Assembly: GCA_050920985.1 (NCBI GenBank)
Contig: JBPBQY010000044.1
Location: forward strand, 22,123 to 86,122
DNA length: 64,000 nt
Direction: 5' to 3'
Source: Janthinobacterium lividum
GTDB taxonomy: Bacteria; Pseudomonadota; Alphaproteobacteria; Rhizobiales; Beijerinckiaceae
Shown: positions 54,580 through 64,000 of the stretch, piece after piece
How positions within the stretch are numbered: position 1 is the first letter of the stretch
Layout of the letters: each line of letters starts with the position of its first letter
Made by a program: the position numbers and the translations under genes
Notes under the pieces: generated by a model
Told to the model about the DNA's origin: nothing
The model's database searches: none
What the model saw: only the letters and a program-made list of their open reading frames with translations

Positions 54580-54628
54580 GGCTGGCGGGGGACCTGGATT
54601 CGAACCAAGCTTGACGGAGTCAGAGTCC
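54580..54628 (-). repeat. att site: degenerate 3' fragment of tRNA-Gln(CTG)
   Basis: Minus strand GGA-CTCTGAC-TCCGTCAAGCTTGGTTCGAATCCAGGTCCCCCGCCA; no 5' acceptor or D-arm upstream. Confidence 0.85.
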
Positions 54629-54973
54629 CCGTAAACGCACTGAATTCATTTGCCTTTTCTGTAGCCCGTGGTCTTTCGTTTACAGTCGCTCGCTGAACAT
54701 CGCTTCCGGCATGTAGCGCTGCGAACGCCAGTGGCCTCGGCATTGGCCCGGTCTCGGGGCCGGGCACCTCCGATAAGCCCCCTTCTCGGCGGTGAAAGTG
54801 ACTTGGTAGGCGCTTCTACGCCCGCCGGCTCCGCTTAGTCCTTCAAAGACCGCAGACATGCTTCGCGCTAACGCGTTGCTTTCGCTTGAGAAGAAGCGAG
54901 TGGGTCTCGGGCTAGGGGATAGCGAGATACCTATGAATGCCTGCTGTCGACAAAGGTGGTAGGTTTCACGCGA

Positions 54974-57900
54974 ATGAGCAAACAAAACCAAATTGCAGTG
55001 GGGATCGGTCCTTTGGCGAACACCGGCGAACTCGATTTCTATGACGCGGAGGCACTGCTCGACCGCCTTAGCACGGGACTTCAGAGCCAAGCACGTCAGG
55101 TCGTGTTTGTGGTCGGCTCAGGGCTGACTAATCCGGCCACTCCCGGCGGCCCCGGTGTTCCGGGGGTACAGGGTGTTATAGACCTGATTAGGGCCGAATT
55201 CACTGGCATTCAGTTGCAACAGCTTGAGGATACCTTGAGTACGTCTAGCAACGCGTACCAAGATGCCTTCAAGTTTCTCCTTGGGCGTAGAGGACCACAT
55301 ACAGCTAACGGCATAATAAAAAAGGCTGTAGCAAAGGCAAGGCGCATTTCAGTCGATGGCGATGGCGTCACTAAATACGAGATTAGTGCTTCGACCGATG
55401 ATGAAATTTGCAGATTATTCGACAATGACTCCTCTGGTTGGCTTTTAACGCCCGCGGTTGATGGCCTAGGCCGCATTGTTTCCGCCGAAAACAGCCCGTT
55501 CAACCGCATGGTGGTGACAACGAACTTCGATCCGCTGATTGGTGCAGCAATCGCGCGACATGGCGGCCATTCGTTCCGAACGTTTTTACACCGCGACGGC
55601 AGCTTAGGTCAGGCAGATGGATCTGGCACACACATCGTCCATCTGCATGGATACTGGTATGGATCCGACACGCTACATACTCCCCGACAGCTAGTTCAGC
55701 CTCGCCCGCAGCTAAAAGCTTCCTTGTCTCACCTTCTTCGCGGCAATATTTTTGTCGTCATGGCTTACAGTGGATGGGACGATGTTTTCACACGCACTCT
55801 CATGGACGTTGTTCTTGAAGACAGTTCGTTTCCTGAAATACTGTGGTGTTTTTACAATAAGAATCCTGAACCACGACAAGACCTGCTGAATATTCTGGGC
55901 CCCGGCATCGATCGGGGCAGCGTTATGCTTTATTCTGGAATAGATGTTCACGATTTTCTTCCCAGGCTAGGAGAACGGTGGGGCCTAGTAAAAGACGTAA
56001 GCGTCACAACGGCGGACCAGCCCGCAGCCTCTGAAGACGTAACCATCTCATCAGATAAGGCATCCGGCACAATCAGCGGAAGTACCCTTTCACTCCTACT
56101 GAGAGACATCGATCAAGACCGCCCTCCGCTTATTGAATTCCTAGTCGGACGCGACCAAGACCTCGAAGCTCTAGCTACATCTGCTTTTCGGGTCGGCTTT
56201 ATCACGGGGTTTGGAGGTCAAGGTAAATCGGCTTTAGCCGCTGCATATTTCAAAAGTGTTGAGGCAGCCTCAGCTTTTCCACTTCGGATTTGGCGCGACT
56301 GTCGGGAGCAGAGCGCACGATTTGAGGATCAGATTGTCGCAATCGTAAAAGCCTTAAGCAATGGAAGCGTAAGCGGCGCTGAATTGGCTCAACAGCCTAT
56401 TTCGGACTTGGCTGACCTTTTCGTCAAGCTCACAGAAGATGCCCCCATGTTGCTCGTCTTCGATAACATGGACCACTATGTCGACATAGAACGTCGCACA
56501 TTGACAGGTGATGCCGGTCGTTTCGTGGAAAGGTTCCTACACTCAGACTCGCTATCGCGGCTTGTTCTAACATGCCGTCCAACAATAAAGCAAAGCGATG
56601 AAGCAACGTTTTCCCGACATCTCGAAGGGTTAACACTGCCAGCTACCGAACGCTTGTTCGCTTTACGGAAAACGATGGCCGATTTAGCTAGCGTAGAACG
56701 TGCCCACGCCGCGACAAAGGGGCATTCGTTTTGGCTCGATCTTTTAGCAGCTCAGGTCGCCCGGAGAGCTCCTGAAGTCAAGTTGGATGATCTTTTGTCG
56801 TCGATTTCGGACGGCACAGGCGAGCTACCTGACGCAACGCTTCGCTCAATTTGGCGTTCCTTGCGGCCACGCGAACAGGTAACGCTGCAAGCGCTTGCAG
56901 AGGTACTAAGACCGACCACCCACCTTGAGCTGGCAGACTATGTTAGAAACAGCTTGCATTATAAGAACTTTAACAAAGCGGTCAAGCTTCTTAGAGACCT
57001 CAACCTTATCGTTGTAAAAACGAAGGATAATGAAGCGGAGACTTACGAACTCCATCCGCTCATTCGCGCATTTATCCAAAAGACTATACCTCGGATTGAA
57101 CGTACACCTTTCATATTAGCCATCCTCCAGAGTTATGCTGCATGGCTAGGCTCGCACAAAATACAGTTGAGCAAGCGGCCTGGGCCTGGGATCGTCCACC
57201 GATGGATCGAGGCTGCTGAGCTGTGCCTAAATGCGGATAAAAACGAAGAAGCTTTAGGGCATCTAAGTGAAATAGGCCGTGCTGTAAGACTGTCTGAGCC
57301 TCCGAACGAGTTCGTCAGAGTATCCCAACGCCTGTTCGATTCTTCCGATCTATCTAAGCTGAAGCTTTCGCGATCTTTCGATCGCGTGTACAATGCATAT
57401 CTACGGCTTCTCGTCCATCTTGGTCGAACAGAAAGCGCAGCGGAAGCTCTGCATATGTTCAGCTCAACCCTCGATGGTAAGGATACGCGTTATATATTGT
57501 ACTGCGATATGCAGTGTTATATGCATTGGGTAAACGGAGAGTATTCAGTGGCCATTCGCTGGGGCATGGAGGGAGAAGAGCTTCGATCTTCCGGGGTAGA
57601 TACTAAGTACTCCGCTGCTCATAATTTAGCGCTTGCTCAACGGGACGCAGGTGCTATCGAACCAGCGCTCAAGTATTTTCTACAAGGGGTGCCGCTGGCC
57701 GATGTAGTCGATCCGAATAAGATAGATAGGGACCTTGGCGGTGCTTTGTACGGCAATGTCGGTCGTTGCCTTCAACTAATGGGGCAAATCGACTCTGCAA
57801 TTTCTTGTTTCAAGAAATCTGCTAAGCTAATCGAAGACGAGAAGGACGATCTAGATTTCGAGAATCAAGCTTTCATTCGACAGTGGATTGGTGATCTACT

Positions 57901-58096
57901 TTTTGTGCGTGGAGATACGAAGACATCACGGCTGTTTATGGAAGCTGCAGTTGGCAAGTGGTCTATTATTTCTCCCCCAAGAGCCGAAAAACTTGTCGAA
58001 GCGATCCGTACACGCTTCGGTGAAGGTGAGATAAACCCCCATGATGCAGAACTCCAAGTTCTGATTTGGATCATGAAAGTAGATCTACCGAATTGA
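54974..58096 (+). CDS. SIR2-like + STAND (NB-ARC-like) NTPase + TPR protein; Avs/NLR-like antiphage candidate
   Basis: SIR2: VFVVGSGLT, TTNFD, HLHG, YSGWDD. NTPase: VGRD.DL, GFGGQGKS, LLVFDN.D, LTCR, GHSFWL, YELHPLIR. Helical repeat C terminus. Confidence 0.88.
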   Translation: MSKQNQIAVGIGPLANTGELDFYDAEALLDRLSTGLQSQARQVVFVVGSGLTNPATPGGPGVPGVQGVIDLIRAEFTGIQLQQLEDTLSTSSNAYQDAFKFLLGRRGPHTANGIIKKAVAKARRISVDGDGVTKYEISASTDDEICRLFDNDSSGWLLTPAVDGLGRIVSAENSPFNRMVVTTNFDPLIGAAIARHGGHSFRTFLHRDGSLGQADGSGTHIVHLHGYWYGSDTLHTPRQLVQPRPQLKASLSHLLRGNIFVVMAYSGWDDVFTRTLMDVVLEDSSFPEILWCFYNKNPEPRQDLLNILGPGIDRGSVMLYSGIDVHDFLPRLGERWGLVKDVSVTTADQPAASEDVTISSDKASGTISGSTLSLLLRDIDQDRPPLIEFLVGRDQDLEALATSAFRVGFITGFGGQGKSALAAAYFKSVEAASAFPLRIWRDCREQSARFEDQIVAIVKALSNGSVSGAELAQQPISDLADLFVKLTEDAPMLLVFDNMDHYVDIERRTLTGDAGRFVERFLHSDSLSRLVLTCRPTIKQSDEATFSRHLEGLTLPATERLFALRKTMADLASVERAHAATKGHSFWLDLLAAQVARRAPEVKLDDLLSSISDGTGELPDATLRSIWRSLRPREQVTLQALAEVLRPTTHLELADYVRNSLHYKNFNKAVKLLRDLNLIVVKTKDNEAETYELHPLIRAFIQKTIPRIERTPFILAILQSYAAWLGSHKIQLSKRPGPGIVHRWIEAAELCLNADKNEEALGHLSEIGRAVRLSEPPNEFVRVSQRLFDSSDLSKLKLSRSFDRVYNAYLRLLVHLGRTESAAEALHMFSSTLDGKDTRYILYCDMQCYMHWVNGEYSVAIRWGMEGEELRSSGVDTKYSAAHNLALAQRDAGAIEPALKYFLQGVPLADVVDPNKIDRDLGGALYGNVGRCLQLMGQIDSAISCFKKSAKLIEDEKDDLDFENQAFIRQWIGDLLFVRGDTKTSRLFMEAAVGKWSIISPPRAEKLVEAIRTRFGEGEINPHDAELQVLIWIMKVDLPN

Positions 58097-58549
58097 AGTT
58101 CCTCGGACCTTGTAAGTGGCTCTGCTTTCGCTCTGAAAATCGTCCTACGGTTCATGAGCGTCGTAGACGCGAGAGTGAAACAACGAGCAATCTGCCTTCA
58201 GTTTTGGTAGATTGGCTGAACACCGCTGTGCTCCCCCTTGGACGAGCTCTGAACTTGTGAGACGGAAGCTTCCGAGAAGGGCCACTTTCGGAAGCTGGCT
58301 GAGAGCCTGCCTCGAGTGGCGACCCGGGACTTGCTCTGGTCCACCTTGCAGTGCGTGTTCACGACCTGCTGCCCCTACGCGACCTGTGATCAACAGTGGC
58401 ACTCGTCCGTTGACGCGAGGTCGTAGGGCAAGCTCCTGTATTGTCTTGCTACTTCTCGCTAACCTGTAGCCTGCTTCCAAAATGCCGTAGTGGGCAGGGT
58501 CCCCCATGTGCTATCGATTAGTACAGGACGGGCAACTCTGGAAGCCACG

Positions 58550-59458
58550 ATGAAATCCGAGTGGGAGCTTTTCGTTGTCGGCAAGGGTCCGCCGGTACCA
58601 AGCAACAGCAGCTGGAGACCATTGCTGGCCGTACATCACGGTACTCATCTTAAGGCCGCCGGTCGCATCGCCGAAGACGAACGCATCGCCAGCGACCTAG
58701 TCGCTGATGGCAGACTAGCCAGCACGAGGGAGAAGTTCGTTTTCACGACGCCGAAGAGATGGCCTGACGGCAATCGGTATGGAAGCTTCGAATTCGAGCT
58801 CGACTGGCTCCACGTGATCAAGGGTCGTCAGCTTTATTGGGTCGAAAGCCTCGCTGGATATGAGGTTCCAGTTTTCCGGATCCTAGCATCGCGAAAGGAC
58901 GTAAGCGCTTTACCGGTTGTCCCATACGATCCCGTGGCGGACCAAGGTCCTGTCCGGCTGGTCGGTACCGAGTGGTACTGGGCGCGCGATCATGCGGCGG
59001 AAATCCTGCTTGACGAGGACGTACCGCTCGCGGACATCAATACGCTCTCGTTCGCAAAACACGACGACAAGCGTTGTAGCCAGCGACCGGGCGGATCATG
59101 CCCTGAGGCGGGAGCAGCCAATAGCTGGCACTCTCATGCTGCTTTGATGAGCATGTTGCTCGGCCGCCGCCTAACCTCGCTGGACAAGCTTTTGGTTCAG
59201 AATGGGAAGTTCTCGCCGGGAGCATTCAACGCTTTGGGTTGGTTGTGGTTCTACTTAGGAGGTGTGCGGTCGAGAACCGGGCCATTGGCGAACGATGCGC
59301 AGGCAGCGGACCTGCTGCGCTCGGCGCTTCTTCTCTTGCATGCCGGCGACCGCGATGGCGCACTTCAGGTGCTCGATCTGGTCGACGCTCAATCACGGGT
59401 TCTTCAGTCATTCGAGCAGGCCATCGAAGGCCATTTCGGTGTTCCTGCCTGGGATTGA
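58550..59458 (+). CDS. Hypothetical protein with putative ADP-ribosyltransferase (DarT/HYE-like) fold
   Basis: HHGTH...A.RI, FVFTTP..W..GNRYG, AEILLDEDVPL.DI resembling the DarT AEFLV..VP..I catalytic strand. Confidence 0.55.
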   Translation: MKSEWELFVVGKGPPVPSNSSWRPLLAVHHGTHLKAAGRIAEDERIASDLVADGRLASTREKFVFTTPKRWPDGNRYGSFEFELDWLHVIKGRQLYWVESLAGYEVPVFRILASRKDVSALPVVPYDPVADQGPVRLVGTEWYWARDHAAEILLDEDVPLADINTLSFAKHDDKRCSQRPGGSCPEAGAANSWHSHAALMSMLLGRRLTSLDKLLVQNGKFSPGAFNALGWLWFYLGGVRSRTGPLANDAQAADLLRSALLLLHAGDRDGALQVLDLVDAQSRVLQSFEQAIEGHFGVPAWD

Positions 59459-59749
59459 CTCAGGTCAGAATTTTGCTGATTGCGGGCACCTTGGTTTGCC
59501 CACCCTCGGACTAGACTAAGCGCTGCGAACATCGTCTCTCCGCTACGATTGGGTCAGGGCACTCTTGTTCCGAGAAGGGCGATGATCGGCAGTGACTGGT
59601 CTCGGCAAACGGCCGCTGGCGACCCGATGTCATCGCAGAAGGACAAGGAAGTTTCATGTACCATCTTGGTGCTGCGGCGGCCCGAGTCGGGCGAGCGCTA
59701 CCATTGTGGTCTGAGACAGCGCTGACGTGCAGAACGGGAGGGGACTGAC

Positions 59750-60115: not shown

Positions 60116-60453
60116 CTGCTTGTCTCCACCGGTTCGGTTCATCGCTACCGAGAAGGACCGTTACCGGAGGCAACCGATCGAGGTTGCTGGACACCTATGC
60201 CGTCGCACACGAAAAGCACGACCGGCGAAGCGGTTGATCGCTGCAAGTCTCGGCGCTAAAGGGTGCGTCGCGTCGTACAGCCGTGTTCGCTTCGCTTTCT
60301 GAATATCCGAAGCGAACTCACCGCTTCGACCGCTATAGGTGAGACTTGGCTGATAGCAGCGTGCATGTGAGGGGTGTGGCAGGTGTAGTAACGATCTCTC
60401 GTCCGGTGGAATCCGGTGCTGCGTCGCTCACCGTCCGACGTGAGGAGGAATGA

Positions 60454-61715: not shown

Positions 61716-61762
61716 TGGCTGGGGGACCTGGATTCGAACCAAGATTGACGGAGTCAGAGTCC
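61716..61762 (-). repeat. att site: 47-nt 3' fragment of tRNA-Gln(CTG) ending in CCA
   Basis: Minus strand GGA-CTCTGAC-TCCGTCAATCTTGGTTCGAATCCAGGTCCCCCAGCCA; 5' half absent. Confidence 0.9.
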
Positions 61763-61957: not shown

Positions 61958-63151
61958 GTGCCGACAATCAAGCTCAATCAGCGCGCAGTCGACGCCCTCG
62001 CATTCGAGGGTAAGCGCAACATTGTATGGGATGCGGGGACGCCCGGCTTTGGGGTTATCGTCTACGCCACGTCCAAGGCCTACACGGTCCAATATCGGGT
62101 TGACGGGCAATCCCGCCGGGTGAACCTCGGGTCAACGGCCGAGCACAGCTTCAAGGCCGCTCGCGACAAGGCGGCAGACATCCTCCAGGCGGCCCGTAAG
62201 GGAACGGACCTGATCTCGCCTCCGGTCGCGAAGCGAGTCACGTTCCAAGCCTGCGCTGAAGAGTGGATGAAGCTCAAAAGGCCCGAGTGGTCCCCCGCCA
62301 CCTATGAGGATTACGAGGACCGCTTTTCCAGGCTCATCTTCGCTCGACAGAATGGCGACGGTGCTGAGGTCGGGATCGGCGCCAAGGCGCTACAGGACGT
62401 CTCCCCGGTAGACGTGGAGAAGCTACACGCGAGCATGGTCGGAAGTCCTCGAAATCAGAGCTACACGGTCACGCTTATCAAGGCCGTGTTCAACTATGCC
62501 GTTCGGGCGAAACACCTCGACCCCTCGCACCACAATCCCGCAAACTTGGCACAGCTCCCCCGCAACAAGGATGCCGAGCCGAAAGAGCAGCGTGTCCTAA
62601 CCGGCCCGGAGGTGGAGAAGTTGGGCAAGGCGCTCGCCGCTATGGAAGCCGCTGGCGAAGTCTCCCCCCATCTCGCGGGACTTCTACGAATCTCCCTACT
62701 GTGCGGATTGCGGCCCGGTGAGGCTCGAAGCGTGAAGTGGGAGAATGTGGACCTAGACAGTCGCATCATGCGCGTGACGGGGAAGACGGGCACTCGGCGC
62801 GTGCCGCTGTCGGACGCTGCGGTCGAGGTGCTGAAGCGGGTCCATGAGTACCGGCAGGCCGCGAACCCTTACGTCTTCATAGGTCGCGTGACAGGGCAGC
62901 ACCTTGTCGGGATCGCAAAGCAGCTCGACAGGATTGCCGAGCGGGCAGGGGTGCCGCGCTTCAACCCCTATGTCTTCCGCCACAGTGCCGCGACACAGTC
63001 ACTCGCGGGCGGCGCCGACGTGCGAGCTGTGCAAGCGCTGCTGGGGCATACTGACTTGAAGACGACGATGGTCTACCTTCATGCGGATGAGGACCGGAAG
63101 CGGAAAGCGGTGGGTCACGTTGAGGCGTTCGCGAAAGCATTTGCAAAATGA
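61958..63151 (+). CDS. Tyrosine recombinase/integrase with N-terminal arm-binding domain
   Basis: WD...PGFGV.V......Y.VQYR..G..RR..LG; catalytic CGLRPGE, GKTG, YVFRHS.AT, LLGH....TT.VY. Confidence 0.95.
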   Translation: MPTIKLNQRAVDALAFEGKRNIVWDAGTPGFGVIVYATSKAYTVQYRVDGQSRRVNLGSTAEHSFKAARDKAADILQAARKGTDLISPPVAKRVTFQACAEEWMKLKRPEWSPATYEDYEDRFSRLIFARQNGDGAEVGIGAKALQDVSPVDVEKLHASMVGSPRNQSYTVTLIKAVFNYAVRAKHLDPSHHNPANLAQLPRNKDAEPKEQRVLTGPEVEKLGKALAAMEAAGEVSPHLAGLLRISLLCGLRPGEARSVKWENVDLDSRIMRVTGKTGTRRVPLSDAAVEVLKRVHEYRQAANPYVFIGRVTGQHLVGIAKQLDRIAERAGVPRFNPYVFRHSAATQSLAGGADVRAVQALLGHTDLKTTMVYLHADEDRKRKAVGHVEAFAKAFAK

Positions 63152-63525
63152 TACGTCGCTTGAAGACATTCTTTTCTGATGTGCATCCCAAGTTTATTGA
63201 AGCTACCGGCATAGCGCTGGTTCTGGCCGCTGCGCTTTGGTCTTATTACACCAAAGAAGCTCTTGATACCAAACTACAAAGAAATGAAGCGAAACTCCTC
63301 AACCTCAGGCTAGTTGGAATTGAGCAGATGATTGCTGCGGATCACGCACTGCGCAAAGAATTCCTTTTTGAAGATCGCGACAATTTCGATGCTGCATATA
63401 AAGCGATTGATGATTTAAGAAATGATGGGACCTATAAAATGCTCTCCTGGTTGAAGCTAAGTATGTATTCATGTGGGACCATTCTTCTAATTGCAGCAAA
63501 GATAAAAGAGGGTTTGAAAAGATGA
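63148..63525 (+). CDS. Hypothetical 2-TM protein translationally coupled to the integrase
   Basis: ATGA overlap; hydrophobic helices near both ends with a coiled linker; AT-rich. Confidence 0.65.
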   Translation: MIRRLKTFFSDVHPKFIEATGIALVLAAALWSYYTKEALDTKLQRNEAKLLNLRLVGIEQMIAADHALRKEFLFEDRDNFDAAYKAIDDLRNDGTYKMLSWLKLSMYSCGTILLIAAKIKEGLKR

Positions 63526-63581
63526 TGGCTCTGAAAAGCGGTTACCTCACAAGCTACGGGTAACGAGCGACGTGAAGCAGC

Positions 63582-64000
63582 TTAATTTAATGCCCACTGC
63601 GAAATTAAGTTCGCCTCGCCTATCGGCACTTGTAGTAGCTGAAATCGTGCAACGAGCCCATCTTGACCCGGTATAAAATTGACAATGCAAGGTATTGCCT
63701 CTGGTTTCGGCGCGCTCAATTCGACCAATCTCGCATAGTATACTTTTATTAATTCAATAGCGTTGCCAGAGTCATGCATCAGATATGCCATCAGCCGCTT
63801 ATGACTTTCTAAATATTCGATTGATGAAATATATATTTCTAGGCTTTCATATCCCTCTCGAATGATTTCCGACTTGAAAGATTCCTGAACTTTTCGGTTA
63901 CTTAATAGCTGTTGAGTATCTATCCTCATACTTATTTCAAGTTTAGGCGACTTAGTATTTACGTCGTTTATGGAAATGGGCACAGTAGTTATGGGAGGCT
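63582..64000 (-). CDS. 3' part of a low-GC hypothetical gene (5' end off window)
   Basis: Frame stays open to base 64000; no family recognised. Confidence 0.55.
   Translation of the reverse strand, partial: PPITTVPISINDVNTKSPKLEISMRIDTQQLLSNRKVQESFKSEIIREGYESLEIYISSIEYLESHKRLMAYLMHDSGNAIELIKVYYARLVELSAPKPEAIPCIVNFIPGQDGLVARFQLLQVPIGEANLISQWALN

Follow-up and report, generated by a model that had tools for sequence, protein, structure and literature searches.

An islet-borne SIR2-STAND-TPR gene encodes a probable stand-alone, NLR-like sensor-effector that resembles Avs5 in design

What does a large gene do that sits on a small low-GC islet at positions 54974-58096 of the 64,000-nucleotide stretch of DNA analysed here (the window; contig JBPBQY010000044.1 of assembly GCA_050920985.1)? 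A preliminary description of this DNA had proposed that the gene product joins a SIR2 domain, a STAND NTPase and a TPR-like tail and that it acts as an NLR-like antiphage sensor-effector, perhaps an undescribed Avs variant. The analysis reported here found this tripartite architecture, and by analogy with characterised proteins the likely function is that of a stand-alone NLR-like (Avs-like) sensor-effector in which phage sensing would switch on a SIR2 NADase and lead to abortive infection. The gene and its parts are as follows.

54974..58096, + strand: complete SIR2-STAND-TPR gene of 1040 aa, from the list of open reading frames (ORFs) and their translation; identical to a 1040-aa protein already on record
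55037..55981, + strand: SIR2 effector domain (SIR2_2, the defence-type 'SIRim'), residues ~22-336, with a PF13289 match
55523-55525, + strand: predicted catalytic residue N184, invariant in two alignments
55646-55648, + strand: predicted catalytic residue H225, invariant in two alignments; D186, likewise invariant, is also predicted to be catalytic
55994..56074, + strand: linker, residues 341-367, disordered (pLDDT <50) and unconserved, with no alignment consensus
56078..57085, + strand: STAND NTPase (NOD) of the NB-ARC / AP-ATPase type, residues ~369-704, made up of a nucleotide-binding domain (NBD), a helical domain (HD) and a winged-helix domain (WHD)
56225-56227, + strand: K418 of Walker A, in the NBD
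57053-57055, + strand: H694 of LHPL, at the end of the WHD
57092..58075, + strand: C-terminal TPR-like alpha-solenoid, residues ~707-1034, the presumed sensor, from the AlphaFold2 (AF2) model and Pfam

The gene is present in a single copy in the genome. Its translation also allows a GTG start at 54956, six codons upstream of the ATG at 54974, which would give a protein of 1046 aa. The start at 54974 given in the preliminary description is reasonable because residues 1-17 are not conserved among homologues and are disordered in the AF2 model, and it is the ATG form that is on record. Scans for promoters and terminators returned sites that were no commoner than expected by chance.

Motif conservation was determined in an alignment of 44 homologues with 39-55% identity; residue numbers count from the ATG. 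The alignment contains the following elements: (i) the SIR2 Rossmann loop VVGSGLT, in which G48 is nearly invariant; (ii) TTNFDP (residues 182-187) with invariant T182, N184, F185, D186 and P187; (iii) HLHG (residues 223-226) with invariant H225 and G226; (iv) Walker A, GFGGQGKS (residues 412-419), with invariant G412, G415, G417 and K418; (v) Walker B, LLVFDNMD (residues 493-500), with invariant D497, N498 and D500; (vi) sensor-1, TCRP (residues 533-536), in which all four residues including R535 are invariant; (vii) GHSFWLD (residues 583-589) with invariant G583, W587, L588 and D589; and (viii) the MHD-like LHPL (residues 693-696) with invariant L693, H694 and P695, which closes the WHD. The SIR2, Walker A/B, sensor and LHPL motifs that had been described from the window protein are thus present, and invariant or nearly so, throughout this set. 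The GxP-like motif of the same description held up in part: GHSFWLD is conserved and occupies the GLPL position of NB-ARC proteins, but the proline is missing, so that the motif can be termed GxP-like and nothing closer. With 317 homologues listed at E<=1e-3, the top ones full-length, the architecture lies far beyond chance.

The N-terminal domain matched SIR2_2 (PF13289) with 36.1 bits over residues 179-305, against a gathering threshold of 24.5, and the same model matched all 44 family members. Only two cysteines (C146 and C292) occur in residues 1-340, and hence the domain lacks the Zn-ribbon, or Cys tetrad, of classical sirtuins. Absence of the Zn-ribbon fits the NADase-type 'SIRim' class and not the deacetylating sirtuins (Bonhomme preprint, 10.1101/2024.09.18.613514). 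A model of the SIR2 domain by itself reached a pLDDT of 92.6 and matched SIR2/HerA, SPARSA, DSR2, ThsA, KomC and EfAvs5 in a Foldseek search with TM scores of 0.5-0.66, SIR2/HerA and SPARSA ranking first and EfAvs5 ranking 48th. When Protein Data Bank (PDB) sequences were searched with the SIR2 profile, human FAM118B came out as the best match (4e-9) and outranked all bacterial defence SIR2 proteins. N184 (in TTNFD) and H225 (in HLHG) align with the TTNFD and HIHG of FAM118B, i.e. with N163/H206, its catalytic Asn/His pair (Bonhomme preprint, 10.1101/2024.09.18.613514). FAM118B was not among the top 50 Foldseek matches of the SIR2 domain, and no special structural affinity to it is therefore shown. 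On these comparisons the SIR2 domain is predicted to be an NAD+ hydrolase that acts via N184/D186/H225. Assignment of this SIR2 subtype to the PADLOC candidate PDC-S65 was also considered; the core similarity is weak, and membership was rejected on that account.

The central NTPase belongs with the NB-ARC (AP-ATPase) clade. At E<=1e-3, NB-ARC matched 42 of the 44 family members (best 2e-11), NACHT 19 and nSTAND3 five, the latter weakly. A search of PDB sequences with the family profile returned PH0952 (8e-13) followed by NRC2, Roq1 and ZAR1 for the NOD part, and SIR2-APAZ and FAM118B for the SIR2 part. The secondary structure of the AF2 model follows the order NBD, HD and WHD; the NBD carries Walker A, Walker B with D497/D500 and sensor-1 with R535, GHSFWLD lies in the HD, and a beta-hairpin precedes H694. 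The C-terminal part, of ~330 aa, is all-helical in the model from residue 707 to 1034 (~17 consecutive helices, pLDDT mostly >85). Its fold matched a consensus TPR superhelix (2.6e-5) and, weakly, the TPRs of TTC29/GPSM2, and TPR_12 was recognised in 27 of the 44 relatives (best 1.8e-15), in agreement with the helical-repeat C terminus proposed earlier.

The whole-chain AF2 model, computed from the 44-sequence alignment, had a pLDDT of 85.3 and a pTM of 0.61. Its best Foldseek match in the PDB was PH0952 (6mfv, an archaeal STAND-TPR protein; 3.5e-15), followed by the SIR2-STAND protein EfAvs5 (9jap; 4e-11, 1101 columns, 12% identity). ADP-bound Apaf-1 (1z6t) matched with 1.3e-9 and a root-mean-square deviation (rmsd) of 6.3 A over 500 columns, and later matches comprised MalT, CED-4, the plant proteins NRC2/NRC3/ZAR1/RPP1, ThsA, KomC, SPARSA, DSR2 and SIR2/HerA. 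Open apoptosome chains aligned far worse (rmsd ~23 A) than ADP-bound Apaf-1, and for this reason the model is considered closed-like, resembling the ADP-bound state of Apaf-1. Hidden Markov models (HMMs), the profile search of the PDB, the AF2 model and Foldseek all bear out the order SIR2, STAND NTPase, TPR. When the window protein is taken alone, the SIR2_2 score lies above its HMM threshold and those of NB-ARC, AAA_16 and TPR lie below theirs.

Given this domain order, the protein might be a genuine member of Avs5 (AVAST type 5) that uses the Avs5 triggers and filament mechanism. Avs5 consists of SIR2, nSTAND3 (PF20720) and TPR/Sel1/PPR repeats (PMC12931631). Phage proteins set off the SIR2-STAND NADases EfAvs5 and PaAvs5, T7 gp1.7 and JADA being the triggers described (PMC11897194, PMC12931631). 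The order SIR2-NOD-helical repeats is identical, and EfAvs5 came second in the whole-chain structure search and was also recovered, at rank 48, with the SIR2 domain. Against membership, the window protein has no nSTAND3 match at E<=1, in keeping with the family-wide preponderance of NB-ARC (42 versus five of 44), and the two structures, once aligned, show 12% identity between the window protein and EfAvs5. EfAvs5 was not found in profile-versus-PDB searches, either with the full-length profile (E<=1) or with the SIR2 profile (E<=10). PADLOC produced weak Avs4 matches in eight of the 44 relatives and no Avs5 match, and NCBIfam holds no model for the SIR2-STAND-TPR protein. Avs5 membership is accordingly regarded as very improbable and was ruled out on the missing nSTAND3, PADLOC Avs5 and EfAvs5 profile matches. 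The likeness to Avs5 is thus one of design and not of detectable descent, and the suggestion that the protein may be an undescribed Avs variant is borne out: the window protein matches no PADLOC Avs model, EfAvs5 is not recovered by sequence profile, and the NTPase is of the NB-ARC and not of the nSTAND3 type.

How a stand-alone sensor-effector of this kind might work can be outlined from Avs5, DSR2, ThsA, SPARSA, Apaf-1 and PH0952, from which its closed rest, type of trigger, oligomerisation, NADase chemistry and antiphage outcome are all drawn. At rest the protein would be closed, with the NB-ARC-type NOD bound to ADP, H694 placed over the nucleotide and the TPR solenoid packed on the NOD. 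Binding of a phage protein, or of another protein derived from an invader, to the TPR part would release this lock. Nucleotide exchange and binding at Walker A/B (K418, D497/D500) would then lead to oligomerisation, and the oligomer would gather the N-terminal SIR2 domains into an active assembly. Assembly-dependent activation of SIR2 is documented in EfAvs5 filaments (PMC11897194) and has been discussed for ThsA and FAM118B (PMC12700824). The active SIR2 domains would hydrolyse NAD+ via N184/D186/H225, and depletion of NAD+ would halt the infected cell and with it the phage.

The setting of the gene bears on how it was acquired and on whether it needs a partner. At 54.5 kb the GC content drops from ~70%, the value of the genome and the flanks, to ~51%, and the low-GC DNA is bounded by two tRNA fragments. 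The features concerned are listed below.

54587..54628, - strand: left 42-nt tRNA-Gln 3' fragment at the boundary of the low-GC islet, direct repeat
58490-59458, + strand: downstream ORF of 322 aa without a Pfam or PADLOC match
61721..61762, - strand: right tRNA-Gln 3' fragment at the opposite boundary of the islet, which spans 7.1 kb, direct repeat
61958-63151: tyrosine integrase gene just outside the second tRNA fragment (PF00589, 3e-29)
L087:16796-16869 (G000:C12 ~102795-102868): intact tRNA-Gln(CTG), 16.7 kb past the window end

The two 42-nt fragments form a direct repeat (41/42 identical) that encloses the 7.1-kb islet. They correspond to the 3' part of tRNA-Gln(CTG) and share a 23-mer with the intact copy, whose position 16.7 kb past the window end indicates a tandem array of islands. 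Within the window, ARAGORN and Rfam detected no tRNA or non-coding RNA. Core genes, among them a two-component system and a patatin gene, lie upstream of the islet. These features speak for a recent arrival, and it is concluded that the SIR2-STAND-TPR gene was horizontally acquired on a small tRNA-Gln-associated islet.

Two further observations concern the same DNA. A 25-nt palindromic element, TTCCGAGAAGGGCCACTTTCGGAAG, occurs in intergenic parts of the islet at 58270-58294, 59568-59592 and 60146-60170, the other copies being 72-80% identical; it may be a hairpin resembling a repetitive extragenic palindrome (REP) or a terminator. Beyond the integrase gene, the GC content falls lower still (~45% in window positions 63000-64000), and two ORFs at 63148-63525 (+ strand) and 63582-63998 (- strand), neither with a Pfam match, are presumably cargo of a second island.

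As no integrase gene lies between its two tRNA fragments, the islet could be stranded, and the gene on it a decaying passenger whose function is lost. Several family copies elsewhere are indeed split or frame-broken: frame breaks, or annotation as two coding sequences (an ATP-binding protein and a SIR2 family protein), were seen at loci L016, L044 and L046 and in Rhizobium phaseoli (NZ_CP013588.1, 117594-120508). The 3.1-kb frame in the window, in contrast, is uninterrupted and retains every invariant catalytic and switch residue, and decay is held to have only a minute chance of being the right explanation.

The downstream ORF at 58490-59458 raises another alternative, namely that the two genes form an NAD+-using two-gene system. 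This ORF is adjacent to the SIR2-STAND-TPR gene, co-oriented with it and part of the same islet. The two genes are, however, separated by a gap of ~400 nt that contains a palindromic element, and the ORF product has no domain or defence-model match that would assign it a role. In addition, no homologue of the ORF lies within 6 kb of the family member in any of 46 other loci, and with zero co-occurrence the coupled system was rejected as exceedingly improbable. When ORFs within 6 kb were clustered across 47 loci, no conserved partner gene emerged, and the recurrent neighbours were generic ABC ATPases (seven loci) and integrases (five loci, including that of the window). The annotated contexts of three homologues, in Allosphingosinicella, Asticcacaulis and Bradyrhizobium, are wholly different from one another. 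Judged from these sequence comparisons, the SIR2-STAND-TPR gene appears to work alone.

The distribution of the gene is patchy. None of 24 congeneric species and 16 genomes of the same order carries it, and a search at E<=1e-50 did not find it in another 400 genomes of the class. When each species was represented by a single genome, 185 of 185,579 species (~0.1%) turned out to have relatives, ~50 of them full-length. These relatives belong to at least eight phyla, occur mostly in soil organisms and include Alpha-, Beta- and Gammaproteobacteria as well as Acidobacteriota, Gemmatimonadota, Actinomycetota, Verrucomicrobiota, Bacteroidota, Dormibacterota and Binatia. Both Granulicella tundricola and Rhizobium phaseoli have full-length copies on conjugative plasmids. 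On the Granulicella tundricola plasmid pACIX905 (L086:3916-7496), a complete, divergently oriented Gabija pair lies immediately upstream of the family member (PADLOC; GajA, E 8.5e-264; GajB, 6e-237), and IS110, recombinase, HNH and NYN genes are found at the same locus, which is a plasmid-borne defence island.

Parts of the protein also occur in other combinations. The conjugative plasmid pOC5aB of Pantoea ananatis encodes, next to an integrase, a 963-aa 'SIR2 family protein' (WP_207806739.1; L085:3143-6034) whose NOD+TPR chassis is homologous to that of the window protein (27% identity over 653 aa, E 4e-65). The two proteins have in common the motifs RPP, GGQGKS, WRD, VFDN.D.Y.D, TCRP, LEGL, ELHPL.R.FI and YGN.G.C. 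The SIR2 head of the Pantoea protein, on the other hand, is of the ThsA/LmuA/Dsr1 type (PADLOC, 9e-23) and has no detectable similarity to the SIR2 domain of the window protein; PADLOC made no Avs call for it. This distant protein is the only relative with a different SIR2 subtype on the NOD+TPR chassis. Conversely, the SIR2 subtype of the window protein (TTNFDPL, WYGSDTLHT) is found without the NB-ARC-TPR chassis in proteins of ~300-560 aa, once together with TIR_2, in Corallococcus, Vibrio jasicida, Paraburkholderia and others (loci L059-L084). Avs-type immune proteins characteristically swap their effector modules while the sensor-switch chassis is conserved (PMC12803255). Relatives of ~775 aa that seemed to lack SIR2 were considered as carriers of other effectors and rejected: they are N-terminally truncated gene calls which start inside the SIR2 domain.

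Several results weigh against a role in phage defence or against the assignments on which such a role is built. For the window protein, Pfam NB-ARC (PF00931) scored 14.7 bits, below the cut-off of 23.5, the TPR_1/TPR_12 matches at residues 925-956 also stayed below threshold, as did AAA_16, and PADLOC v2.0 assigned no Avs model, its matches being remote ones to the SIR2 core (pAgo-associated SIR2 and PDC-S65). The closed resting state is read from a predicted structure, the AF2 model. No homologue was found in phage genomes, and many homologues sit among housekeeping genes. Among 123 nearest-neighbour ORFs from 41 loci, only a handful reached 1e-10 with PADLOC models, which in several cases are generic. 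The matches (mad3 twice, PDC-S14, a type II restriction endonuclease, a reverse transcriptase, PDC-S48, mad8, QatC and others) are raw counts without a background; they suggest some, modest association with defence islands.

The protein might instead be an NLR-like switch that operates outside phage defence, for instance in plasmid exclusion or exclusion of integrative and conjugative elements, in kin or self/non-self discrimination or in stress-triggered dormancy, or its SIR2 domain might ADP-ribosylate a target and not simply hydrolyse NAD+. SIR2-type enzymes are able to transfer ADP-ribose. A non-phage role in conflict or signalling, or transferase chemistry, is considered the main rival explanation, and it draws on the modest defence neighbourhood, on the many loci among housekeeping genes and on the concentration of the family in soil bacteria with complex lifestyles. 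Moreover, defence and non-defence STAND clades are intermingled (PMC12803255). On the other side, the effector type, the mobility as a single gene, the patchy occurrence, the carriage on a plasmid by Gabija and the swapping of effector subtypes match what is seen in antiphage STAND proteins, and the characterised bacterial SIR2_2-type fusions recovered by the fold search are all antiphage NADases. The non-phage or transferase alternative is therefore judged unlikely, although it carries more weight than Avs5 membership, decay or a two-gene system, and a phage-sensing SIR2 NADase with an abortive outcome probably describes the protein best.

A STAND sensor coupled to a SIR2 NADase effector is already known and structurally characterised. 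As this principle is established, the gain from the present family is one of breadth and not a new concept. What is new is an uncharacterised family that PADLOC v2.0 misses and that differs from Avs5 in the clade of the switch, in the sensor and in the SIR2 subtype. Since PADLOC v2.0 fails to detect the family, its numbers are underestimated in defence inventories of soil and symbiotic bacteria. A 2026 survey recognised 589 STAND clades, 198 of them associated with defence (PMC12803255), and the SIR2-NB-ARC-TPR family is probably contained among the 589. Characterisation of one member would help to show (i) whether NB-ARC-type NODs activate SIR2 by way of a ring or a filament, (ii) which phage protein is recognised by the new class of TPR sensor, and (iii) whether SIR2-NLR immunity in bacteria is connected to that in eukaryotes through the FAM118-like SIR2 subtype.

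The last point touches on the eukaryotic 'clade A' of immune sirtuins, to which human FAM118A/B (SIRal/SIRanc) belong together with fungal and animal SIR2-NACHT/NB-ARC-TPR/ankyrin NLRs and whose bacterial sister group is left unnamed (Bonhomme preprint, 10.1101/2024.09.18.613514). The SIR2-NB-ARC-TPR lineage could conceivably be the prokaryotic counterpart, or the source stock, of this clade. This idea is favoured by the SIR2 profile, whose top solved match is FAM118B (4e-9), by NOD relatives that include Apaf-1 and plant NLRs and by the identical tripartite architecture; the absence of FAM118B from the top 50 structural matches of the SIR2 domain counts against it, and on balance we regard it as doubtful.

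Among known systems, Avs5 provides the nearest design, and EfAvs5 is the closest solved protein of the same overall architecture. Both families are stand-alone mobile genes for one polypeptide with SIR2 at the N terminus, a STAND NTPase in the middle and helical repeats at the C terminus, and a common logic, in which a phage protein causes oligomerisation and NAD+ depletion, would be expected by analogy. The window protein differs from Avs5 in being ~200 aa longer with another TPR sensor, in having an NB-ARC/AP-ATPase-like NTPase in place of nSTAND3, and in a SIR2 subtype that by profile is nearest to FAM118B and to the SIR2 associated with prokaryotic Argonautes (pAgo). The defence SIR2 NADases SIR2/HerA, SPARSA SIR2-APAZ, DSR2, ThsA and KomC have the SIR2 fold and the missing Zn-ribbon in common with it, whereas they are controlled by other partners or domains, namely HerA, pAgo, a tail-tube sensor or a SLOG domain.

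With respect to the remainder of the chain, PH0952 of Pyrococcus horikoshii is the best match of the NOD+TPR part by both profile and fold (TM 0.55 on the target, 724 columns). It shows the same succession of an NB-ARC-like NOD and a TPR solenoid, arranged in a closed form, but it lacks a SIR2 effector, is not known to act in immunity, and has 14% identity. Apaf-1, CED-4 and the plant NLRs NRC2, ZAR1 and Roq1 resemble the window protein in the series NBD-HD1-WHD, in Walker A/B and sensor-1 and in the His motif that closes the WHD. They depart from it at both termini and within the switch: the effectors of Apaf-1 and the plant NLRs are CARD, coiled-coil or TIR domains and that of the window protein is SIR2, their sensors consist of WD40 or leucine-rich repeats and not of TPRs, the proline of the NB-ARC GLPL motif is absent from GHSFWL, and LHP stands in place of MHD/LHD.

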